Of a stretch of DNA of 10,809 nt, positions 1 through 10,809 are shown one piece after another. The notes beneath the pieces were generated by a model. The model had not been told where the DNA came from. It made no database searches and was given only the letters and a program-made list of their open reading frames with translations. The stretch covers positions 1 to 10,809 of the forward strand of contig JAEOUH010000015.1 of NCBI GenBank assembly GCA_016839365.1, written 5' to 3'. Each line of letters opens with the position of its first letter. The stretch's first letter is position 1. The translations under genes and the position numbers were made by a program. Source of the DNA: Candidatus Hermodarchaeota archaeon (GTDB taxonomy: Archaea; Asgardarchaeota; Hermodarchaeia; Hermodarchaeales; Hermodarchaeaceae).

Positions 1-819
1 ATAATAATTACTTGCAACGAGTGACGCAGGGTTAGGGAGTTTCTTCAGATTTGTTAAAATCCCACAGTGGCAGCCACAGCAATTGCAGATCACAAAGCCT
101 TTTTGATCATTGCTTGGACTGCAAACTAGACCTGCATCGTGAGCCTCGTCTAGTATTTTGATGGCTTCATCGACTGTGATTTCGCGACCATATCCGTTTT
201 CAATGTAGTAATGCGCACCAGTGGAAAAGACCATACACACTTCTTCAGGTTTTTCACACTGCTCTCCTAATACCGCCTTCTCACGCTTGCAGATACAGGG
301 TGCCACAGCGATTTTACTCTGCTTTTTGACGATTTCTCGGGCATCTTCATGTGGTAAGACGCCCATCGATGGAGTCAGGCTCGCAGCAACTGGGATGACG
401 CGAAGCTGAGGTGGATCAGCTGAAGCAACAAGTTCATCTCCCAGGGCCTCTTCCATGTATTGCTCGAAATCTTCAGCCAATTCCTTGGTCATATTATTGA
501 CTTGGTGTTCATAGATACCAACGGCAAACCATTCTGCTCGATATTGGGTGATTCCTCCTTTATGAGAACGGAAAATCAATCCTTTATTGGCTAACTGATC
601 CAACAACGGCTTGATTTCCTTAGGATCACGTTCGATGCGTTGAGCAATCTGTTCAACTGTTTCAGGAATATAGGTCAAGTACGTGGCCATTTCAGCCTCT
701 TCTTCAGTGAAAAGGCGTTTGAGAATCCGAATTTCAACTCCTGATTCAGTTTTAGGAAAACCAACAGGAAGACTATCCAGATGTTCACGAAGGCGTTCAT
801 AAACAGTGTTACTACTCAT
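1..819 (-). CDS. 4Fe-4S cluster-binding protein with N-terminal HTH-like region (3' end runs off the window)
   Basis: Not in the ORF track because the stop lies outside the window. Manual translation from ATG at 819: MSSNTVYERLREHLDSLPVGFPKTESGVEIRILKRLFTEEEAEMA...APCICKRE...CEKPEEVC...ICNCCGCHCGIL, open to base 1. GGTGA SD upstream. This motif pattern is typical of Fe-S proteins in anaerobic bacteria and archaea. Confidence 0.85.
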   Translation of the reverse strand, partial: MSSNTVYERLREHLDSLPVGFPKTESGVEIRILKRLFTEEEAEMATYLTYIPETVEQIAQRIERDPKEIKPLLDQLANKGLIFRSHKGGITQYRAEWFAVGIYEHQVNNMTKELAEDFEQYMEEALGDELVASADPPQLRVIPVAASLTPSMGVLPHEDAREIVKKQSKIAVAPCICKREKAVLGEQCEKPEEVCMVFSTGAHYYIENGYGREITVDEAIKILDEAHDAGLVCSPSNDQKGFVICNCCGCHCGILTNLKKLPNPASLVASNYY

Positions 820-866
820 GGTGGTCACCAGACTCTGGCTACATGGGTAGTTAGTCCTTGAATATC

Positions 867-1487
867 TTATGTTCTAAACACATTCGAATTGAATCTCAGT
901 TTATGACCACAGTGACTGCAATGCTTAGAATTAGGTTCAATTACTGAACCACAGTTTTCACAATAGGCCATAGATGCCTTACCAGGGATAAACCCAGAGT
1001 CACGGATTTTTAGCTTCGCTTTTCCAAGTGCGTCTTTTTTATCCAAAATGGTGGGAAAGTGCCAAAGGTAAACTCCTGCCACGACTGTCGCACCGAGAAG
1101 TCCCATAACAATATCACGGACGCCATTCCACCAGAAGTTCGAATAGATTCCAAGCCATGGAAAGAAGATCGATAGGAATTCTTCAAAAATCTCCCACGCA
1201 AAGGCTACGGCTAAAGTGTAGAAAATTGCTGGTAGAATGATCAGAAGAAATGGCGGAACAATTGGAAGAACTTTTTTCAAAGATCGTGATAGATTAAAGT
1301 TCAAAAGAAATGCACAAATAGCGGCTCCGAAGAGAAAGTGGGGAATCATGTCAAGATAAGAGCCCGCACTATATCCGCCAGTGAGTTGAATTAAAATATG
1401 TGCTGTAATAGCCAAAACGAAGAGGGGAATAGTAACAAGAATCCATAAGCGGTCTGTGCGAAACCAAGATCGCGATGCCATTATCAT
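867..1487 (-). CDS. Integral membrane protein (about 4-5 TM) with C-terminal zinc ribbon
   Basis: Hydrophobic segments carrying D..H, WE..E and D residues; C-terminal CENCG...CSHCG. Confidence 0.75.
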   Translation of the reverse strand: MIMASRSWFRTDRLWILVTIPLFVLAITAHILIQLTGGYSAGSYLDMIPHFLFGAAICAFLLNFNLSRSLKKVLPIVPPFLLIILPAIFYTLAVAFAWEIFEEFLSIFFPWLGIYSNFWWNGVRDIVMGLLGATVVAGVYLWHFPTILDKKDALGKAKLKIRDSGFIPGKASMAYCENCGSVIEPNSKHCSHCGHKLRFNSNVFRT

Positions 1488-1560
1488 ATGCCCTTATCTA
1501 GGTCCACGTCTTAACCTCAAAAAGTTGTGGGGTCAAGAAAACCTAGCCAAACTCTTTGGG

Positions 1561-3321
1561 CTATAATGGAATCGGGATTTCTCCATCATAAAAGAAGCTG
1601 TTCTTTTTGACATACTCTAAATAGCGCTTAATCTCTGTCTCCTGCATTTTTGGTGTCCATTCAAGAATTGCTCCCATTCGCTTTACTGCTGAAGAAGCGA
1701 TTTGCCCTTGATATTCAGGACGAACTAGCCAGCATACCTCCATTCGCCGGCAAAGAACATCTTCTAAATGAAAAGGAGCCTCATGGCGTACAACATAGTC
1801 CACTTCAGCTGCAATCCAAGGAGCCACTTCAACTGGATAATCAGGAACTTCAAGAAGTCGTGCTGCGAGTTCTGGGTGATTCTGAACCTCCTGAAGAATG
1901 GCTAAGCCTCCGCGTCCGTACTGTTGGTAAAGGTGGCGCAAGATAACTGGATGCAGCGTAGAATTGGCGACTCTAGGGTGGTTTTCCCATTCACTTTGTG
2001 AGAGTGTAATTGCATATGCGATTTTGGTCAGGTTTTTCGTTTCAGAGAATTTTGGTAAATCATGTGCAGCACGTGCTTTTAGGATATGGTTCAGAAGCAA
2101 GTCCTCTGCCATCTTCCGGAATGTTGTAAGTTTCCCACCAAGGAGGCTGTAAAGACCATCTTCGCGCTGTAACACGGTGTGCTTTCGGGAGACATCACTT
2201 TCTGTTTTTCCGATTTCAGCCACTAATGGGCGAAGTCCTGCATAGGAACCATGGATATGTTGATCATCGACTTTTGCATCGGGAAACAGCATGCGAAGGG
2301 TATTCCGCAGATAATCGGCATCCTCGCGGGTGCAATAGACTTCTGCTGGGTCACCTGAATAATCAGTATCTGTGGTTCCAACCAGAACCCAGTCATTTCG
2401 CCGGATCGCGAAGAAAAACCGGCGGTCATCAATCGAGTTCATAGCAAAGGTATCGTTGATGGGGATATCTTTACGATGATAGGCCAAATGAACGCCTTTC
2501 GTTGGACGGAGAACCTTCTCAGTCGATTCACGATTTAGTTCCAGGACTTCATCGGCCCACACACCTGTTGTATTAATTATCACTTTTCCTCGGATATGCA
2601 GCTTCTCCGATTCTGAGCCAGTCACATCAATGGCTTCTACGCCATTCACTTGATTCCTAGAATCGTGGTCAAATCCCACAACTCGGATGTAATTCAGAGC
2701 AAGTGCATTGTTTGTGTGTAGCGCTTCCTTGAGGGTTTCAATCACCAACCGGGCGTCATCAACATTCGAATCATACCATGTGATTGCGCCTTTCAGCCGC
2801 GACGATTCCAAAAGAGGCTCAAGCTCTCTGATTTTTTCCACATTCTTGATGCCTTTGCCTCCCCGATAACTCCTGAAACCACTCAGCAAGTCATACAAAA
2901 ATGCACCAAATCTTACCGTGTTATAACTCCAGCTTTTCTTGACTTCTTGGTTTCCCACTTTTCCCTCTGACAATATGGGGTAGAGAAAACGAGTTGGTCT
3001 TGTCAGATGAGGTAATCCCTTGTCTCGCAGCCAGTTTCGTTCCGTTGTGGCTTCACGTACAAGGCTAAATTCTCGTTGCGCAATATAACGAAAGCCGCCA
3101 TGGGCAAGTTTCGTGGACCGACTCGATGTTCCAAACGCAAAATCGTATTGATCGAGGATTGCGACAGCCAAACCACGATAGGCTGCTTCAAGGGCAACTC
3201 CTGCACCAGTGATGCCCGCACCGATTACGATGATATCCCAAGTCGTTTCTTTAAGGCGCTGAAGCTGTTGTTGGCGGTTGATTTGGGAAAAATCATTGCA
3301 TTCAATCGGTGATGTGCCCAT
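1561..3321 (-). CDS. glpD: FAD-dependent glycerol-3-phosphate dehydrogenase/oxidase (GlpD/GlpA family)
   Basis: IGAGITG Rossmann motif, DFAFGTSSRSTKLAHGGFRY, DDARL, KGVHL, VGTTD, AGLRPL, GGKLTTFRKMAE. Start moved from 3456 to ATG 3321 (MGTSP...), which has a GAGGT SD upstream. Confidence 0.93.
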   Translation of the reverse strand: MGTSPIECNDFSQINRQQQLQRLKETTWDIIVIGAGITGAGVALEAAYRGLAVAILDQYDFAFGTSSRSTKLAHGGFRYIAQREFSLVREATTERNWLRDKGLPHLTRPTRFLYPILSEGKVGNQEVKKSWSYNTVRFGAFLYDLLSGFRSYRGGKGIKNVEKIRELEPLLESSRLKGAITWYDSNVDDARLVIETLKEALHTNNALALNYIRVVGFDHDSRNQVNGVEAIDVTGSESEKLHIRGKVIINTTGVWADEVLELNRESTEKVLRPTKGVHLAYHRKDIPINDTFAMNSIDDRRFFFAIRRNDWVLVGTTDTDYSGDPAEVYCTREDADYLRNTLRMLFPDAKVDDQHIHGSYAGLRPLVAEIGKTESDVSRKHTVLQREDGLYSLLGGKLTTFRKMAEDLLLNHILKARAAHDLPKFSETKNLTKIAYAITLSQSEWENHPRVANSTLHPVILRHLYQQYGRGGLAILQEVQNHPELAARLLEVPDYPVEVAPWIAAEVDYVVRHEAPFHLEDVLCRRMEVCWLVRPEYQGQIASSAVKRMGAILEWTPKMQETEIKRYLEYVKKNSFFYDGEIPIPL

Positions 3322-3497
3322 CAATACATACCTCAAGGGGAATGAAGGTTCTTTCCTCTTCAGCTTTACCCTGAAACATAAATCCAAGAAACTTGTGATT
3401 GAAATCCATTTTAAACGCAATATTTTAGTAACGTGGTGAGAGGAGGAACTTTGCACATGCTCAGATAAGTTAGGGTATAAGAAGAGGTCCTAGGGCA

Positions 3498-4319
3498 TTG
3501 ACCGTTCACAGCTTCTATGTAGTCGGATTACGGGAAGGCTTTCCCCTCTATAGTCGAAAGTGGTCCCAATCTGATGTCGACAGTGCCCTCCTTTCGGGTT
3601 TTTTAGCCAGTATGGAACACATGGCTCAACAAGTAGCTGCACAACACGTCAACGTCGTGAACATGAAAGATCGCCGGTTTTTCTTCCAAATCGATGAACA
3701 AAACGGTTTACTCCTCGTCTTCATCACCGACGTAAGCGAAAGCCCCGCCCGCTTCCGCAAGTACCTGGGCATCCTGAACAAGAAATTTGTGAAAATGTTC
3801 AAAAAGCAACTCGATGAGCTCCACGAAAACGGCACCACTGATACAAACCTCTTCAACAGCTTCGATGAGTTCATCGACGACCTTGTTCTTACATGGTGGA
3901 TGGGGGAGACCACTATCTCTGCCGCTAAGGTGATGGATGTCTTCGAAGTGTTCACGCTCTTCTTCAACACCATTCTACAACGGTTCCTCACCGATGTCAC
4001 ACGCCGAACCTATGGCAAGGAAATTCAGCGACTCTTTGAAACCAAAATGAAGAAAATCCCTGCCCTTACTGGCATTACAATCGACAAAACCGGCGTCGTT
4101 ACTTACGAATCCATTGACCCTCAGCAAGTCAAATACACGCAATTCCGGAACGTTCTTTTCGACATCTTCCATGAGTTAATGGTACTCACCCGCAAAACCA
4201 TGCCCAAACAAACGTACCGCTCCCTAGTCTTCGAGCACATCAGCCCTCTCATCCGAACCGAACAAGACCGGATGAAAACCTATTCTCTGACAGAAAAAAT
4301 CGTGATGGAAATACTATGA
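3498..4319 (+). CDS. Longin-domain protein (N-terminal longin fold plus helical C-terminal extension)
   Basis: SFYVV..GFPLYSR / DSALLSGFLASMEHMA / RFFF..GLLLVFITD / LNKKFVKMF..FNSFDEFID fits the b-b-a-b-b-b-a-a longin pattern. TTG start; ATGA overlap with the GTPase. Confidence 0.75.
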   Translation: MTVHSFYVVGLREGFPLYSRKWSQSDVDSALLSGFLASMEHMAQQVAAQHVNVVNMKDRRFFFQIDEQNGLLLVFITDVSESPARFRKYLGILNKKFVKMFKKQLDELHENGTTDTNLFNSFDEFIDDLVLTWWMGETTISAAKVMDVFEVFTLFFNTILQRFLTDVTRRTYGKEIQRLFETKMKKIPALTGITIDKTGVVTYESIDPQQVKYTQFRNVLFDIFHELMVLTRKTMPKQTYRSLVFEHISPLIRTEQDRMKTYSLTEKIVMEIL

Positions 4320-4870
4320 GTAACCCCACCGAAAGCACCACCCAGCCAATCGCTACAAGACGCCCCTACACACACATCGCCAAAGCCGTCGTTATCGGCG
4401 ATGCTGCCGTCGGAAAAACCAGCCTCCTAGTTAGATATGTTAAAGGCTTATTTAATCCAACTTATATCTTAACAATTGGGGTTGCATTTCATGTTAAAGA
4501 TATTGTTTTAGGTGAAAATGTTCTCCGGTTGCAGGCGTGGGATACGGGGGGTCAGGAACGGTTTGGTCCAATTCGACAGCTCTATTATCGTGGTGCTAAA
4601 GGAGTTCTTATGGTATATGATCAGTCGAACCCTGAATCTTTCAATCGGGTTGATTATTGGTTGAATGAGGTAAAACGGGGTTGTGGGGATGTGCCTTTGG
4701 TCCTTATCGCTAATAAGTCAGACCTTCCTGAAAAGGTGAAAACCGAAGAAGGGCGGAAGAAGGCCGAGGAACATTCGATGGTGTTCGTCGAGACCAGTGC
4801 GAAGGACGATACGAATGTTGACTTCGCGTTCTCGGAATTGGCAAGGATAATACTGAATCAGAGTGGTTAG
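4316..4870 (+). CDS. Rab-like small GTPase (Ras superfamily)
   Basis: G1 GDAAVGKT, G2/RabF1-like TIGVAF, G3 WDTGGQERF, RabF4 YYRGA, G4 NKSD, G5 ETSAK; no C-terminal Cys prenylation motif. Confidence 0.95.
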   Translation: MSNPTESTTQPIATRRPYTHIAKAVVIGDAAVGKTSLLVRYVKGLFNPTYILTIGVAFHVKDIVLGENVLRLQAWDTGGQERFGPIRQLYYRGAKGVLMVYDQSNPESFNRVDYWLNEVKRGCGDVPLVLIANKSDLPEKVKTEEGRKKAEEHSMVFVETSAKDDTNVDFAFSELARIILNQSG

Positions 4871-5502
4871 AGTTCTTGTTTTTTAAGCAAAGATATTGTT
4901 GCAGCAAAAGCGCCGAGTTGTGCAGCTACTCGTGTTGGTCCTGATCCGATAATGAGAACGTCTCCAATTTGAATGTTAAAGGGTTCAAGGACCTCTCTGA
5001 GCTCTTTTTTCGGGATACGATGTTCCTTTACCATAACTAGAACTTCTAGATCTTCGTCTTGGATGAAGGTTGATGCTCCACTTGCACCCGCTTGAAGGGC
5101 TGCATCTCGTTGTTCAACGCCGTCGGTAACGTAATTGGCGAGTTGGTGAAGGTGACAACCATTGTTGTAAACATCTATTGTGTAGCTGCTTTCTGGTAAT
5201 TCATCGAATGCGACAAGGATTTCTCCAAGCTTCTCACAGTGTTGCTTACCTTTTGGAGAAAGCTGATGGCCCTGTCGATTGATGGGTATAATAAGTCCCT
5301 GACTCCGGAGAAACCGGATAAGTGAACGAATACTGCCCCCACCTAATCCCAGATCTGAACCAAGTTGGTATCGACCGATAGGAGCCGTTGATCGGCAAAA
5401 GGCATAGAAGGCCGCTAGGAGGTGCCAGGGATGAAACTGAGTGGGAGGCCCTTGGCGTACATCAGTGCTCAGGAGTTTGATGAGTTCCATGGAGATAATC
5501 AT
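4867..5502 (-). CDS. Winged-HTH protein with DUF4443-like C-terminal domain (putative regulator)
   Basis: PIGRYQLGSDLGLGGGSIRSLIRFLRSQGLI wHTH and the GVEQRDAALQAGASGA motif; ATGA overlap with the ECF gene. Confidence 0.7.
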   Translation of the reverse strand: MIISMELIKLLSTDVRQGPPTQFHPWHLLAAFYAFCRSTAPIGRYQLGSDLGLGGGSIRSLIRFLRSQGLIIPINRQGHQLSPKGKQHCEKLGEILVAFDELPESSYTIDVYNNGCHLHQLANYVTDGVEQRDAALQAGASGASTFIQDEDLEVLVMVKEHRIPKKELREVLEPFNIQIGDVLIIGSGPTRVAAQLGAFAATISLLKKQEL

Positions 5503-6140
5503 CCTTTCAGTGATTCATGCAGGTTGGGTTCTTTCTTCGCTTTTATTCCGTTTTTACCTTGGTGAAACTGGTTTACTTGAAGGTGATGGACTGCCAGAGT
5601 TACTGGTTGGGTGAGGAGACCGAATAAAACTGCGTTACTTGCAATATGAATAATCATGAAGGGCAGACCTGTAATAATGGTCACGATGAATGGTATACCA
5701 AAGGTGAAGCTGTAGGCAAAGGTGGTTACCAGGTCGAAGAAGAGGGTGAGGAGGATGCCAAATAGAGCCGGAACGAGAAACCAACGATTATCAGAGTAAT
5801 CTAACTGTTGGACGGCTTTTCCGAGAATACCTCCAATAATACCAATAAAGATGGTGCATCCAATTACGGCTAGTCCAATGGGTGGGAGGAAGGCCCCCCA
5901 GGGATTCCATAATTGGTAGATCAACATGGCGATGAGCCCAACGAAGGCGCCAATAATTGGTCCAAAGAGGAATCCGCTAAGAAAAACCATAACGGAGGAG
6001 AGCTCGACGTTGGGAATGGCAGAGAGGGCATAATTTCCCCCTATCGCCAGCGCCGCAAAGACAGCAATGAATGCGACTCGAATTGCGACCGTGCTCCCTG
6101 GATGTGGGGGTTCTCCTCTGTTATCCTTCAAGCAAATCAA
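5499..6140 (-). CDS. ECF transporter S component, CbrT-like (possibly cobalamin)
   Basis: About 6 TM helices; IAVFAALA (AxxxA) in helix 1 followed by IPNVE; HIASN near the C-terminus. The substrate is an inference. Confidence 0.8.
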   Translation of the reverse strand: MICLKDNRGEPPHPGSTVAIRVAFIAVFAALAIGGNYALSAIPNVELSSVMVFLSGFLFGPIIGAFVGLIAMLIYQLWNPWGAFLPPIGLAVIGCTIFIGIIGGILGKAVQQLDYSDNRWFLVPALFGILLTLFFDLVTTFAYSFTFGIPFIVTIITGLPFMIIHIASNAVLFGLLTQPVTLAVHHLQVNQFHQGKNGIKAKKEPNLHESLKG

Positions 6141-6871
6141 CCCTTTTTCGATCGAGTGTCCGATATCACGATTGCAAAGAAGACTATAACGAGAACGATT
6201 CCAAAGGTCCCCACAAAGAGCAGTGTATTCAGGAAAGTGGGATTCTGTGTAAGAGCAACGAAATCGATGCCTAGATGGTAGTCATTCTGGAAGAAGAATT
6301 CCGTATACGCTGAGAGGAGAATTCCTGAATTGATATCGTAGATTAATGTGGTGTTCTGATTTCCCCACGGGCCTTGATGGTATACGTACGTTTTCGTAGA
6401 TAACCCCTCTAAGATATCTAAAGTGCCATTCATCCAGAAGCCTGTAGCGGCTTCGGTGGCTGCTTGGTCAACGGCATTCCAATCAAGGTGCGAGACTAAT
6501 CCTGGGAACCAGGGCCAGATACTGAACACAAGCTCTGCAGCGATTCGCGAATCATTAGCCGGAAGGGTAAGGTTACCAATTGTCAACAATCCCGTTAACT
6601 CGTCATTTACAATTCCCTGGATTTCAAACGAAAGCGCTTGACCTGCTTGGGCGTGCCAGAAGGTGCCGGACCCATAGCCAAATTCGACCGCCGCATCTGT
6701 GACATTGGTGATCCGCCAATGAATTTTGGATGTGCTGAAGGCATCTGGGTACAACTGAGGCGCATAGGGGAGGGTTTGAGCTGTTGTCGGTTGAACACAA
6801 AACAGGATAATCGATATGGCGAATACAAAACTAAGCATTACTTCTGTTCTTGGTCGCATAAACAAATTCAC
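6137..6871 (-). CDS. Hypothetical secreted, C-terminally anchored beta-rich surface protein
   Basis: Signal-peptide-like N-terminus, C-terminal TM helix and basic tail RSKKG; 4-nt overlaps with both neighbours (GTG start). Confidence 0.75.
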   Translation of the reverse strand: MNLFMRPRTEVMLSFVFAISIILFCVQPTTAQTLPYAPQLYPDAFSTSKIHWRITNVTDAAVEFGYGSGTFWHAQAGQALSFEIQGIVNDELTGLLTIGNLTLPANDSRIAAELVFSIWPWFPGLVSHLDWNAVDQAATEAATGFWMNGTLDILEGLSTKTYVYHQGPWGNQNTTLIYDINSGILLSAYTEFFFQNDYHLGIDFVALTQNPTFLNTLLFVGTFGIVLVIVFFAIVISDTRSKKG

Positions 6872-7386
6872 CGTAGTTTGAGATAGATGATGGTGGCGGC
6901 AATGACTACGATTACTCCAATCGCAAGGATGATTCCAAGACCGAATATGAGTTCAGGTCCCGGCGGGGGTGATGCAGTAGGAGTATTTTCTGGGGCACAG
7001 TATTTCCAAAGAATTTGATCGTCATCAGATAATACGTAATTGTCTGCGGCTACTGGGGCAAGGTTGTCGTTAACCCAATATTGCCAATAGAAGCCATTAT
7101 CGTTGGCATTGTTTTCTACACCATTAATTGAGGTGATAAATTTTCCATAGAGGTATTGGGTAAAAACTACGATAGTTGTTTCGTTCAAGACATCAAACAC
7201 CGTCACACCTGCCAGGTCGTGAAATGCCTGTTGTGTTGAATTGCCGTAATCGATGGTCTGCTCGATATTTGAGGCAAGAATAAGATGGTTCTCGATGTTT
7301 GTCGAAGAAGTCAAATTAACATTGGTGGTAGCTGTGAAACAGCACAACGAGAAGATGAGTAATCCAAAAATGGCTAGGTTTTTCAA
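6868..7386 (-). CDS. DUF4430 / transcobalamin beta-domain-like surface protein
   Basis: TVFDVL...YGKFITSINGVEN...FYWQYWVND...VAADNYVLSDDDQILWKY; signal peptide, Pro-rich linker and C-terminal TM. TTG start. Confidence 0.85.
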   Translation of the reverse strand: MKNLAIFGLLIFSLCCFTATTNVNLTSSTNIENHLILASNIEQTIDYGNSTQQAFHDLAGVTVFDVLNETTIVVFTQYLYGKFITSINGVENNANDNGFYWQYWVNDNLAPVAADNYVLSDDDQILWKYCAPENTPTASPPPGPELIFGLGIILAIGVIVVIAATIIYLKLR

Positions 7387-7399
7387 GCAAAGAAGCCTC

Positions 7400-7437
7400 G
7401 TAGGATAAAATATCCTACCATTATTAAAAAGCTTCTC
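7400..7437 (-). promoter_or_regulatory. BRE/TATA promoter plus palindromic operator candidate for the DUF4430-ECF operon
   Basis: Minus strand GAGAAGCTTTTTAATAA (7437-7421), followed by the perfect inverted repeat GTAGGATA-N3-TATCCTAC (7400-7418). Confidence 0.6.
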
Positions 7438-7486
7438 TTGACTAACGATGCGTATAAAGGCTCTAGCTCTGGGGGCTAACCCAGGT

Positions 7487-8983
7487 TCAATGAATCGGCA
7501 GCACTTTCTTAATGAACTCTGTTAGTTTGGTGATTTTGATTGGTTTTTCTTCACCGGTTTTCATGTCACGGACATTCACAGATTTCTCCTCAAGTTCTCG
7601 CGGTCCAACGATGATAACAAGGGGAATCTGCCGTTTTCCTGCATCATCTAGATGCTTAGTCAGTGACCATGAAAAACCGTTGAAAATAGTTCGAATTCCC
7701 TCGGTTCGGAGTTGTGAGGCGATTTCGCGACAGGTACGCAATTGTTTCTTTGTAACAGCGGCGAGATAAACATCAGCTGGGGGGTCAGGTGGTGGAAGCA
7801 AGTTCATTTCCTCCGCCAGCTCCAATATCACCGTCTCACCGAAACCAAATCCAGTTCCTGGCAGGCGTTGACCTTCAAAGATACCAACGAGATCATCATA
7901 TCGTCCTCCACCTGCAATGGCTCGGGGCAGTCCACTACTCCGGTCCCAGGCTTCAAAGACGATACCCGTATAGTAGTCTAGCCCACGCGCAATTCCGGCA
8001 TCAAATTCACACACATCAGTGATTCCTAAATCCTCTAACTGAGTCGCTAGTTGACGTAGGGGATCCAGGGCTTTTTGTGTAGCTGTGTCCAAGGAAAACT
8101 GTTCCATTTTCTGAATGAACTCTTTTGGCGTTCCCCGAATCGCGGAGAATTCTGTGAGTTGCTCTGCTGCTTGTAAGTCCACTCCGGCTTTTCTAAGTGC
8201 CTTGATCAACGCCTTACTTTGAAGTTGAGGTAGATTAGCTTTGAGTGTGTCAATCAGTTTTGAACGGGGAAGTTTGGGCTCTTCTTTTTGTTTTCCAATG
8301 AAGAAATGTCGGAGTTTGAGAGCGACTTCCTCGGCTTTCTTCGCGGAGGTACCGCCCTTTATCAGTTGGTCTACAATTGCTTCTTGTAATATTTTTTCCC
8401 GTCGGTCTAAGACGCGGATAATGTCGATGTAGTTAGTAAGCCCTAGGGATTCGATGAAGCTTTGAACTAACCGGCGATCATTGATCCGGATGACAAAATC
8501 AGCTGGCGTAAAATTCAGACTTAGAATGATTGCAGCGAGTACGTTTATGACCTCTGCGTCGGCGGCGATGTCTTCTGTGCCTAAGATGTCGACATTCAAT
8601 TGCCAAAACTCTTTGACCCGACCTCGTTGTTGTGTCTCGTCTCGAAAGACACGTGAAATCGAGAACCACCGGATAGGACGCGGGTAATACTGCTGTTGGG
8701 CGGCAAGCATACGGGCTAGTGAAGGTGTGGTTTCCGGACGAAGGACTAGTTCCCGTTTCTTCCGATCAGTGACTTTGAAGGTCTCCTCAACTAGGGATGG
8801 CCCAGATTTAAGCTCGTACAATTCTAAGGGTTCAACTGTTGGGCATTCATACTCGATATAACCGAACATTTTTGGAATCTGACGAAAGGCTTGGAGTATC
8901 CGATCAATCCGCTGATAGAGTTCCGGGTAGAAATCCCGAAATCCACCCACTGCAAGGTCTTTTCCGCGTTTCATCGTCACCAA
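7487..8983 (-). CDS. hisS: Histidine--tRNA ligase
   Basis: LRPETT, motif 2 FRDETQQRGRVKEFWQ, ARGLDYYTG, AGGGRYDDL, GFGFG and a C-terminal anticodon-binding domain. The start could be ATG 8974. Confidence 0.95.
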   Translation of the reverse strand: MVTMKRGKDLAVGGFRDFYPELYQRIDRILQAFRQIPKMFGYIEYECPTVEPLELYELKSGPSLVEETFKVTDRKKRELVLRPETTPSLARMLAAQQQYYPRPIRWFSISRVFRDETQQRGRVKEFWQLNVDILGTEDIAADAEVINVLAAIILSLNFTPADFVIRINDRRLVQSFIESLGLTNYIDIIRVLDRREKILQEAIVDQLIKGGTSAKKAEEVALKLRHFFIGKQKEEPKLPRSKLIDTLKANLPQLQSKALIKALRKAGVDLQAAEQLTEFSAIRGTPKEFIQKMEQFSLDTATQKALDPLRQLATQLEDLGITDVCEFDAGIARGLDYYTGIVFEAWDRSSGLPRAIAGGGRYDDLVGIFEGQRLPGTGFGFGETVILELAEEMNLLPPPDPPADVYLAAVTKKQLRTCREIASQLRTEGIRTIFNGFSWSLTKHLDDAGKRQIPLVIIVGPRELEEKSVNVRDMKTGEEKPIKITKLTEFIKKVLPIH

Positions 8984-9028
8984 CTCATGTTCTTATTACC
9001 CACTATTATTGACATAGGTAGGGAAAAA

Positions 9029-9183
9029 TGGTGCCGGGACAGGGATTCGAACCCCGACCTAAAGCTTTCTGCATCCCATCTTTGAAAATGGGCTTCCACA
9101 GGCTTCAATGCTACCATTGCGCCTGGGCAAATACCAGTTTACACCTTCGGGATCCAGTGAAGATACACTGGAATAATCCCGGC
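9029..9183 (-). tRNA. tRNA-His(GUG) with three BHB introns (8/9, 15/16, 37/38); CCA encoded
   Basis: Exons 9183-9176, 9145-9139, 9116-9096 and 9066-9029 splice to the 74-nt cloverleaf GCCGGGA TG GTGT AATGGTA GCAT T GAAGC CTGTGGA GCTTT AGGT CGGGG TTCGAAT CCCTG TCCCGGC A CCA. U8, A14, G18G19, the A15:U48 pair and the TTCGAAT loop are all correct. An oligo-T run follows. Confidence 0.92.
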
Positions 9184-9224
9184 ACGGTGCCCCGGCACGA
9201 GGAAATGTTGAAACAAGCCCTCCC

Positions 9225-9238
9225 ACAAAAAGCTTTCC
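9225..9238 (-). promoter_or_regulatory. Putative BRE/TATA-like promoter of tRNA-His
   Basis: Minus strand GGAAAGCTTTTTGT; same AAGCTTTT core as upstream of aIF1 and DUF4430. Confidence 0.4.
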
Positions 9239-9339
9239 TATCTGGAAAGGGGAGGAGTCGCCTCTTCGTACACCTAGTATTTGTCTGTCGGAGGGCTTGT
9301 GTGAAGCCTCCTCATTGGTTACTTTATGACAAAGCCGTG

Positions 9340-9648
9340 CTATGCGATGTCGATATTATCGGAGGGGAATCCCAGATTTGCTAGGATGTCTTTGATGTTG
9401 TAACGGTGGTCACCTTGAAGGACAATGATCCCGTCTTTTGCACTCCCTCCGCACGCACATTTCATTTTTAATTTTGTGACGAGCTCGGATAGTGAAATGT
9501 CTCGGCTGTTAATGCCTTCAATAAGGGTGACTTCTCGTCCCCATTTTCGTCTTTCGACGCTAATTTTTATTCGCTGCTCGGTCTTTGCCAATTCTTGGCA
9601 GCGACAAATGTCTTTGGGCAAACTGCAAATCGGACAAATTTCTGACAT
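9340..9648 (-). CDS. sui1: Translation initiation factor aIF1 / SUI1 homolog
   Basis: N-terminal CPICSLPKDICRC, RRKWGREVTLIEG, LKMKCACGGS, LQGDHR; GAGGT SD. Confidence 0.95.
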   Translation of the reverse strand: MSEICPICSLPKDICRCQELAKTEQRIKISVERRKWGREVTLIEGINSRDISLSELVTKLKMKCACGGSAKDGIIVLQGDHRYNIKDILANLGFPSDNIDIA

Positions 9649-9695
9649 TATTTACCTCGTAAAATTATGGTACTATGGGGTATCGAAGTTTTACC

Positions 9696-9707
9696 TTATA
9701 AAAGCTT
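9696..9707 (-). promoter_or_regulatory. TATA box upstream of aIF1
   Basis: Minus strand AAGCTTTTATAA about 50 nt upstream of the ATG. Confidence 0.5.
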
Positions 9708-9771
9708 ACGCAATGGCTTGTAGGGACTAGAAGCTTTGAGTAATAGTCTCGAGAACTAGTCTAATGGGTGG

Positions 9772-9987
9772 TTACCTTGCAGTCAGCTTCTTAATGATCT
9801 GCGGACGCTCTTTGTACATAATACGGGCTCCGCAAAAAGGACACTTACTGGATGGTAGGGTCGTAGCAAATGGTTTGCCACAGTGGGGGCAGCGGTTGCT
9901 AGGTGGCATTGAGGGAACTGGGGTCTGGCAATAGGGGCACGAGAGGGTTTTTCCGCATTTAGCGCATCGAAATGTTATCTTGGGCAC
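9772..9987 (-). CDS. rpo12: RNA polymerase subunit Rpo12 (RpoP) with an inserted second zinc ribbon
   Basis: FRCAKCG ... KCPFCGARIMYKERPQIIKKLTAR is the RpoP signature. GTG 9987 is preferred over ATG 10017 because TTTATTAA (10035-10028) lies too close to that ATG; the start is uncertain. Confidence 0.85.
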   Translation of the reverse strand: MPKITFRCAKCGKTLSCPYCQTPVPSMPPSNRCPHCGKPFATTLPSSKCPFCGARIMYKERPQIIKKLTAR

Positions 9988-10057
9988 CTCGAAAAATATG
10001 TGACTGCTAGACGGCATCTCCCATCGCTTAATAAATCTTGCTTAGTTCTAGTCTGAA

Positions 10058-10168
10058 TTAGGGCAAGATAAAGGGTAGACTGAGAAGGATAATTCCAACA
10101 ATCACGCTACCTAAGATTAGTATGATTAGAATTATCGCAATGAGTAGATTTTGTTGTTTCTTCCTCAG
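10058..10168 (-). CDS. Putative 36-aa single-pass membrane microprotein (CTG start)
   Basis: (M)RKKQQNLLIAIILIILILGSVIVGIILLSLPFILP*; CTGA overlap with the Get3/ArsA stop; GGTGA SD 6 nt upstream; fills the intergenic gap. Confidence 0.65.
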   Translation of the reverse strand: MRKKQQNLLIAIILIILILGSVIVGIILLSLPFILP

Positions 10169-10809
10169 GGTTTGTCACCACTCTCTGGAAGTAATCCGGT
10201 TGTTAGGAGGTTGGCCAGGCGGGTTAATGCAGGAATCCCACGAATCTCATCTTGGAATAATGGAACCTCAGTAATGGTGAAGTCGTCATAAATATCGTTA
10301 ATTTGACTGAGATATTGGGTTTGCATTGTTTTTCGAGCTTTACAAAAACTACAATCCGGAATATCCGGAAACACCATATTCACGATAATATGGCTGCTGG
10401 GAATCTGGAATTCATACAGAGTTTGTAGGAGCCGCTCGGTCTCCGATACTGCCATGGCTTCAGGTATCATAACAATGACAAAGCTAGTCCGCGTCGGATC
10501 GGTGAGCTCAACTCTAGCCTCGTTAATGGCTACCTTGAGGTTTTCCAGATTTTCTAAGGAGTTATCTTCTTCCTTTGAGTCACCACGCCCAAATAGTGAT
10601 TTTAATCGTCCAAACATACTACTGAACCGCATCCGAAACTTGATGAGTTTTCCAAAGAAACTATCAAGCATTTCAGGCAAGCCTAATAAACGAAGGGTGT
10701 GGCCTGTCGGTGCAGTATCGAAGACAACCAAATCGTAGTCACACTCATGGATAAATTCCAGCACCTTGGAGAACGCAAGGGCTTCATCAGATCCAGGAGC
10801 AGACATGTC
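10165..10809 (-). CDS. Get3/TRC40-like ArsA-family ATPase (5' part outside the window)
   Basis: APGSDEALAF, FDTAPTGHTLRLL, Met/Phe-rich helical insert (IKFRMRFSSMFGRLKSLFG), IPEAMAVSETERL, VNMV, CSFC (CxxC), EIRG. Confidence 0.9.
   Translation of the reverse strand, partial: DMSAPGSDEALAFSKVLEFIHECDYDLVVFDTAPTGHTLRLLGLPEMLDSFFGKLIKFRMRFSSMFGRLKSLFGRGDSKEEDNSLENLENLKVAINEARVELTDPTRTSFVIVMIPEAMAVSETERLLQTLYEFQIPSSHIIVNMVFPDIPDCSFCKARKTMQTQYLSQINDIYDDFTITEVPLFQDEIRGIPALTRLANLLTTGLLPESGDKP

Follow-up and report, generated by a model that had tools for sequence, protein, structure and literature searches.

The contig JAEOUH010000015.1 of a Candidatus Hermodarchaeota assembly (GCA_016839365.1; 2.2 Mb, 84% complete) was analysed over its entire length of 10,809 nt (contig C51), which is referred to here as the window. 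On its minus strand, the window carries the 3' part of a gene for a Get3/ArsA-family ATPase, hereafter get3, whose stop codon overlaps a candidate CTG start that opens a 36-codon frame for a putative membrane microprotein. Comparison with relatives from a sample of 400 Asgard genomes establishes that this microprotein gene is real, conserved and under selection, and that it is linked and coupled to get3. Overall, the data are best read as a genuine get3-coupled microprotein of the tail-anchor type, which is probably handled by Get3 and which, in this organism, is translated from CTG; we give this reading as a whole a probability of roughly 0.6.

The CTG (10168-10166) and the TGA of get3 (10167-10165) together form a CTGA overlap on the minus strand, and a Shine-Dalgarno-like GGTGA (10179-10175, minus strand) lies within the tail of get3, exactly 6 nt ahead of the CTG. 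A first-pass annotation, made by a model from the letters of the window, had pointed to this arrangement and to similar 4-nt couplings elsewhere in the window, and all coordinates are borne out, including those of the parallel ATGA (4316-4319 and 5499-5502), TTGA (6137-6140) and GTGA (6868-6871) overlaps in the open reading frame (ORF) coordinates. It had also noted that an in-frame TGA bars any earlier start. This TGA (10177-10175) is part of the GGTGA itself and lies two codons upstream in the microprotein frame, which makes an earlier start impossible, and the first ATG, GTG or TTG within the frame is a GTG at codon 22.

From the CTG, the frame runs over 36 codons to a TAA at 10060-10058 (gene 10058..10168, minus strand), and its product has the composition that the first-pass annotation had described, namely a basic N-terminus followed by an uncharged, aliphatic stretch. 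Specifically, residues 2-4 are RKK, charges are absent beyond them, and nearly all of residues 8-36 are aliphatic; an invariant Ser stands at residue 21, and the protein ends in a short Pro-containing tail. The single predicted transmembrane helix begins at residue 8 and leaves about five terminal residues after it, as in a tail anchor, and the positive-inside rule would place the N-terminus in the cytoplasm. The 19-residue Kyte-Doolittle maximum is 3.3 for this microprotein and 2.3-3.3 across its family, which lies in the hydrophobicity range that Get3 prefers.

The window holds the last 214 codons of get3 and its stop (10165..10809, minus strand; PF02374, E 6e-62), and contig C25 of this assembly, which overlaps C51 by 127 nt, supplies the 5' part. 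The joint between the two is spanned by L111, a metagenome contig of independent origin, and the gene is thus intact in the organism. The full-length ATPase of 329 aa (PF02374, E 2e-95) is closest to archaeal Get3 (6e-81 to 3zq6 and 3e-77 to 3ug6), followed by eukaryotic Get3/TRC40 at about 1e-60 and E. coli ArsA at 4e-41. Furthermore, its CxxC zinc motif aligns with that of 3zq6, as does the TRC40-type insert in the helix 8 region. By these similarities, the ATPase is of the Get3 type and not an arsenite-pump ArsA, which narrows the Get3/ArsA-type coupling partner named in the first-pass annotation to the first of the two. Get3/TRC40 proteins bind the single transmembrane helices of tail-anchored proteins.

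The evidence that the frame is a gene comes from its relatives. The get3 loci of 60 related genomes were collected and the sequence after the ATPase was translated. A microprotein ORF lies directly 3' of get3 in 17/17 loci of the Hermod family, which cover two genera and ATPase identities of 72-94%, and these ORFs have 34-38 codons and encode a basic start, a long aliphatic stretch with an invariant Gly-Ser and a Pro-containing end. Mean pairwise diversity at codon positions 1, 2 and 3 is 0.44, 0.17 and 0.61, respectively. Synonymous differences are saturated (0.7-1.0 per site), nonsynonymous differences range from 0.05 to 0.44, and the median ratio of nonsynonymous to synonymous change is 0.2, while the codons of the invariant Gly-Ser vary by species (GGT AGC, GGC AGT, GGG AGT and GGA AGC). 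The proposal of a hidden membrane microprotein gene beside the ATPase thereby finds strong backing, as the frame is kept in all relatives examined despite synonymous saturation. In addition, the first-pass annotation had suggested looking behind orthologous ATPases for a small ORF with ATG, GTG or TTG starts and synonymous-biased change, and such an ORF is what follows them.

A profile of the 17 Hermod products was then used in a six-frame search of the 400 genomes of the phylum, and finds exactly one copy in every get3-bearing genome of the family, 18 in all. The matches have E values of 1e-14 to 1e-18 and always lie directly 3' of get3, and everything else falls at E >= 7e-5. The gene was also expected to escape gene callers, and it largely does: a set of 15 billion predicted proteins lacks the exact products of relatives in 8/8 cases. 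Among 1.84 billion representative proteins, a profile search finds only two clusters, one of which consists of a single 34-aa protein, the other being a 34-aa 'hypothetical protein' from IMG that stems from a further Hermod lineage (P0002) with the same gene order and an ATGA overlap. Neither a Pfam scan of the 17-member Hermod alignment and eight further members or look-alikes, nor a look-alike search of the ESM Atlas, returned anything above threshold.

The family reaches beyond the Hermod genomes. When the get3 loci of other Asgard metagenome-assembled genomes were scanned for short hydrophobic ORFs close behind get3, all Thor-type loci, and one lineage besides (L083), proved to hold a gene of 32-33 codons. 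Relative to the get3 stop, its start lies at -4, -1 or +5 in the Thor-type loci and at +43 in L083, in most cases behind a GGAG-type motif. Profiles of the Hermod and Thor versions align with an hhalign probability of 94% (E 1.3e-7, 32 columns) and in register from residue 1; as a comparison value, the microprotein and an unrelated neighbouring membrane protein reach 1.6%. The same mid-helix Ser is invariant in the joint alignment, with Gly or Ala (Val in one lineage) ahead of it and a small residue at the fourth position after it, a pattern to which the window copy conforms.

The joint profile matches 17/18 genomes of the Hermod family, 77/89 in a set made up of the Thor-type family f6 and two families lumped with it, and 1/1 of yet another family, with only three weak matches (E >= 4e-6) in all other families (e.g., 1/135, 0/31 and 0/22). 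In the five Thor-type genomes with get3 coordinates, the match lies immediately 3' of get3 in every case (5/5). The window copy is matched by the joint profile at E 7e-14 and carries the signature of the family, which consists of 32-38 residues, a basic N-terminus and a helix with the invariant Ser. It likewise shares the position of the family, on the same strand as get3, with a start between -4 and about +12 nt of the get3 stop and a Shine-Dalgarno-like motif upstream. The get3-microprotein pair is, furthermore, the sole pair that is co-directional and coupled in both the Hermod and the Thor classes, the wider neighbourhood being only loosely kept. By profile comparison, the family spans at least two Asgard classes. 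In the literature on Asgard Get3, archaeal Get3 and Asgard tail-anchored small proteins, no get3-coupled microprotein was found described. The family is new to this literature and lies outside Pfam, and the window adds its Hermod branch and the sole CTG member seen.

Similar genes also occur away from get3. The joint profile was extended with two weak outside matches, one a TTG-started 29-codon ORF of family f18, which sits near a contig end with a Shine-Dalgarno-like motif ahead of it, and the other a 50-aa protein of family f9 with a long, very basic N-terminus. This extended profile recovers similar genes in another five genomes from the f9 genus, in family f26 and in the complete f18 genome G053, with scores that are inflated as one member sat in the search profile. 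The look-alikes, of 38-50 codons (L127:1542-1691, minus strand; L129:1280-1429, plus; L128:1450-1587, plus; L126:1520-1633, minus), share the mid-helix motif and the terminal Pro, and two f9 copies and the f26 copy add a long, very basic N-terminal extension. They are probable relatives of the microprotein family and may represent ancestral or alternative forms of it.

The feature that sets the window apart within its family is the start codon. At the homologous position, the 17 family loci have ATG in 12 cases, TTG in three and GTG in one, and CTG only in the window, whose nearest relative (94% ATPase identity) starts with TTG. Among all loci examined, CTG occurs in the window and in L111, and every other locus has ATG, TTG or GTG. 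The CTG is not an assembly error, as it recurs in the one independent contig that an exact-pattern scan of metagenome contigs yielded, SMTZ1_10004502 (L111:1957-12765), which is collinear with window positions 1-10809 at 97.4% identity. This contig has the same GGTGA, spacer and CTG, and its microprotein ORF is intact, with one synonymous change and a TAA to TAG exchange at the same stop codon.

Counted from predicted starts across the genome, 69 genes have a GGTGA that begins at -11 and 23 have one at -12, compared with an expectation of 2.7 per position, and the GGTGA before the microprotein CTG stands at -11, the modal Shine-Dalgarno position. As the 3' end of the 16S rRNA was not found in the assembly by a GGATCACCTCC search, the anti-Shine-Dalgarno sequence is assumed from general archaeal knowledge. 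In two relatives (L010 and L015), GGTGA is kept although the get3 stop precedes the motif, which argues that it is not preserved merely as Gly-Glu codons of Get3. As a more general observation, the genome uses Shine-Dalgarno motifs heavily (GGAGGTGA-type, with the GGTGA peak at -11), along with 4-nt stop/start overlaps.

Coupling at -4 and -1 overlaps is reported from experimental work in an archaeon (PMC10666635). We read the frequent TTG and GTG starts of the family as a sign that initiation is driven mainly by termination-reinitiation and the Shine-Dalgarno motif, in which case a CUG could work as well, if weakly. Ribosome profiling in Haloferax places about 30% of putative novel initiation sites at near-cognate codons (PMC7261190). 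In this species and one sister strain, an ancestral ATG would have passed via TTG to CTG, with weak, coupling-dependent initiation to be expected from it. We hold it fairly probable that the CTG does initiate translation in this way.

Several observations weigh against the overall reading. First, CTG is depleted rather than enriched at the coupled junctions of this genome, which makes no general use of CTG starts. Specifically, the 4-nt junctions between long ORFs comprise 59 ATGA, 24 GTGA, 10 TTGA and 11 CTGA, compared with 30, 24, 19 and 10 for C, A, G and T, respectively, at non-start NTA(A/G) junctions, and most of the CTGA junctions have a canonical start within a few codons. Second, CUG was gained from 2/61,358 AUG starts and 1/2,468 UUG starts in prokaryotes (Belinky et al. 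2017, PMC5622118). Third, the branch to this species, polarised with outgroups, carries 1-3 synonymous and 0 nonsynonymous changes, too few to give power to a test of selection since the CTG arose. Finally, linkage to get3 is not universal, as the look-alikes are unlinked to get3 in the four genomes checked, where the two genes lie on different contigs or, in G053, about 870 kb apart. The claim of a CTG start is partly upheld, in that the CTG is genuine and correctly placed behind a Shine-Dalgarno motif, but initiation from it is not borne out by the junction counts. Three CTGA junctions (C22:7721, C27:20552 and C27:32156) have no canonical start for 18-51 codons and could be CTG starts or merely open frames.

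The first three of these points are what one would expect of a young pseudogene, in which the start has decayed from ATG through TTG to a CTG that is silent here, with the family remaining real elsewhere. Given the few synonymous changes since the ancestor shared with the TTG sister, an intact frame is expected even in the absence of selection. Against such decay, the CTG, the GGTGA at -11, the open frame and the position of the stop codon are common to two strains that differ by 2.6%, and their only two differences in this region are silent, which has a rough chance of 0.06 under neutrality. The frequent turnover of start codons in the family, to TTG and GTG, suggests initiation that is driven by coupling, and the Shine-Dalgarno motif is the weaker GATGA in the TTG sister and the full GGTGA in this species. 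Taken over both branches, the comparison of the species with this TTG-bearing sister counts 6 synonymous and 4 nonsynonymous differences, with a binomial probability of 0.02 for so few nonsynonymous changes under neutrality. Silent decay is a serious alternative that we nevertheless consider rather unlikely.

The reading of a translated, get3-coupled microprotein leads to the following model. Ribosomes that end get3 would reinitiate at a start that overlaps or nearly touches the get3 stop, aided by the Shine-Dalgarno motif in the get3 tail, and Get3 and the microprotein would thereby be made together from one mRNA. The peptide would be shorter than the ribosomal exit tunnel, and its helix would emerge only after release. 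A peptide of 32-38 residues is released before its helix leaves the ribosome, which makes co-translational targeting impossible and means that targeting must be post-translational. Freshly made Get3 would be the first chaperone to consider for its capture and delivery. Once inserted, the microprotein would expose a short basic N-terminus to the cytoplasm, span the bilayer with one very hydrophobic helix and leave a few residues outside. The invariant Ser and its flanking small residues suggest that this helix packs on another, which may belong to a second copy or to a different partner, possibly on the Get3 delivery route. A complex prediction for a Get3 dimer with ATP, Zn and the microprotein, both proteins given as alignments, scored 0.01, a value weighed neither for nor against binding.

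Genes at such distances are known to be coupled, as pairs separated by -8 to +10 nt undergo termination-reinitiation, and they encode subunits of one complex in 45% of cases in H. volcanii and 30% in E. coli, compared with about 6% of distant pairs (Huber et al. 2023, PMC10666635). The first-pass annotation had offered the microprotein as a dedicated substrate, a membrane tether or receptor, or a regulator of an archaeal GET-like pathway. The existence of look-alikes unlinked to get3 in other lineages speaks against an obligatory, dedicated role as tether or receptor of Get3. It rather suggests that the microprotein has a membrane role of its own, and a client of Get3, perhaps one that also acts on the Get3 delivery route, is favoured over a dedicated receptor.

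The opposite view, in which the microprotein is the membrane docking subunit of Get3, a minimal Get2/CAML-like tether whose basic N-terminus would keep Get3 at the membrane beside an Oxa1-superfamily insertase, appears improbable. It draws on the fact that reviews name no archaeal Get3 receptor (PMC5868721, PMC6593721), on the basic N-terminal cluster beside the helix in all members, and on the tight coupling that is typical of complex subunits (PMC10666635). The genome also holds a DUF106/EMC3-type insertase gene, and the Pfam models of Get1 (CHD5, PF04420) and Get4 found no match in it and none in the control genomes either. However, Get2/CAML proteins have three helices and a long flexible arm, compared with a single helix and about 7 cytoplasmic residues in the microprotein, and a basic cluster ahead of a helix reflects nothing but the positive-inside rule. 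Moreover, the DUF106/EMC3-type gene is unlinked (contig C6), the look-alikes of other lineages are not linked to get3, and many Asgard classes that hold get3 have no such gene by these profiles. It is a correspondingly distant prospect that the archaeal GET route has its long-sought component on the membrane side in this microprotein; if that were true, it would also establish, as a side effect, that Asgard ribosomes reinitiate at CUG.

The notion that no protein is made at all, and that the region is a conserved RNA element, a terminator or 3' untranslated region of get3, or a membrane anchor that frameshifting would append to the C-terminus of Get3, can appeal to a very short, AT-rich, hydrophobic ORF of a type that readily arises by chance and to the lack of a canonical start in this genome, but is very hard to reconcile with codon positions of which the third is the most and the second the least variable, a Gly-Ser kept through varied codons, a conserved length and a stop in the same place. 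A frameshift fusion to Get3 was rejected as a general mechanism, since an in-frame stop two codons ahead of the start closes the small frame in the window, and in the relatives L015 and L010 the relative frames differ or stops in all frames separate the genes.

Beyond the get3-microprotein pair, the locus is only partly conserved. A TATA-like box (TTTATTAA, 10028..10035, minus strand), which was read from the sequence and lies in a stretch conserved in relatives, is the putative promoter of the next gene. It stands about 22 nt beyond the microprotein stop, and the microprotein gene would thus end the get3 transcription unit. The next gene (9772..9987, minus strand) lies outside this unit and encodes a zinc-ribbon, RpoP/Rpo12-like protein with weak zinc-ribbon Pfam matches, which is almost invariant across the Hermod family. 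Its start is probably the GTG at 9987 rather than the ATG at 10017, because the TATA-like box would set the transcript start downstream of that ATG and because relatives begin at the GTG position. The gene is co-directional with get3 in Hermod genomes and convergent in Thor-type genomes, and an exact-protein look-up did not find its product in protein records. In five public contigs that encode an identical aIF1 (SUI1) protein, gene callers annotate a 56-aa antisense ORF in the zinc-ribbon interval, and the microprotein gene and the zinc-ribbon gene are both uncalled in their gene tables.

On the other side, two conserved genes precede get3 in all Hermod loci and encode a 237-aa soluble protein and a three-helix membrane protein of about 120 aa. 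In this organism they lie on contig C25 (L002:538-894 and L002:901-1614, minus strand; also L111:464-1543), and both proteins are without a Pfam match. The 237-aa protein is co-directional with get3 in Hermod genomes and adjoining but divergent in Thor-type genomes; its AlphaFold2 model is unusable (pLDDT 37). The 120-aa protein is restricted to the Hermod group, has an acidic N-terminus and a Pro-rich C-terminal end, and is modelled with three helices (pLDDT 61) that have no PDB match at E <= 0.001. As this protein and the microprotein both end in Pro-rich tails, an origin of the microprotein by duplication of its last helix was considered and rejected (hhalign probability 1.6%).

These findings touch on several aspects of archaeal membrane protein targeting. 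Archaeal Get3 binds tail-anchored proteins in vitro, and the sole archaeal relative of the Get1 insertase named in the literature reviewed, DUF106/Ylp1, is a remote one (PMC5868721, PMC6593721). In the same literature, no native archaeal client or receptor of Get3 was found (PMC5868721, PMC6593721). A peptide of 32-38 residues whose synthesis would be coupled to that of Get3 in some hundred Asgard species thereby offers a concrete and cheap handle on the archaeal GET pathway. In addition, the family shows how a membrane protein that is conserved in Asgard archaea escapes standard gene calling almost everywhere, and the locus provides a natural test of how far coupled reinitiation in Asgard archaea tolerates CUG.

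Among known systems, several share individual traits with the microprotein. DUF2116 proteins (PF09889) also combine a basic stretch with a terminal helix, whereas the microprotein has no zinc ribbon and shares no motif with them. Membership was rejected, as the Cys/His ligands are missing, the best score of 19 bits falls short of the 26.8-bit cut-off, and the hhalign match (probability 72%) covers 25 helix columns only. Hermod genomes also contain true DUF2116 genes, but these lie elsewhere and not beside get3. More broadly, DUF2116 proteins (L130-L141), which have a zinc ribbon, a basic linker and a terminal helix and are therefore of the tail-anchor type themselves, occur in roughly every second one of the 60 related Asgard genomes searched, and where they share a contig with get3 (two genomes), the distances are 24 kb and 129 kb. 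Small single-helix subunits of the KdpF, CydX and AcrZ type, which are translationally coupled to their partner genes, are likewise membrane peptides of 30-40 residues that are encoded on the mRNA of a larger partner and usually unannotated, and small mid-helix residues suggest packing as in the microprotein. Their partners are membrane complexes, in contrast to the soluble chaperone ATPase encoded upstream here.

With Get2, CAML and plant GET2, the microprotein shares a basic N-terminal cytoplasmic cluster by a membrane anchor and a genetic association with Get3. It differs from them in its single helix, the missing long arm, the absence of detectable homology and the lack of linkage to a Get1/EMC3-type gene, and with one helix and about 7 cytoplasmic residues it was rejected as a member of this group of receptor subunits. 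The start codon, in turn, resembles the rare prokaryotic CUG starts, in which a near-cognate codon stands behind a well-placed Shine-Dalgarno motif where orthologues have ATG, TTG or GTG, the difference being that CUG use is putative here and that the genome makes no general use of CTG starts.

The microprotein also resembles the minimal tail-anchored clients of Get3/TRC40, such as Sec61-beta/Sbh1, RAMP4/SERP1 and the sarcolipin type. Membership in the RAMP4/SERP family itself (PF06624) was rejected, with a best score of 12 bits (E 0.21, range 0.2-0.55) against a 24-bit cut-off. The microprotein is much shorter than these clients and practically without a cytoplasmic domain, and its capture by Get3 is putative. 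It is also encoded directly beside the targeting ATPase, whereas known clients are not operon-coupled to get3. In common with them, it has one very hydrophobic C-terminal helix, a short basic N-terminus that is predicted to be cytoplasmic, and too few residues for co-translational targeting, and the architecture that can be read from its sequence is that of a minimal tail-anchored protein.

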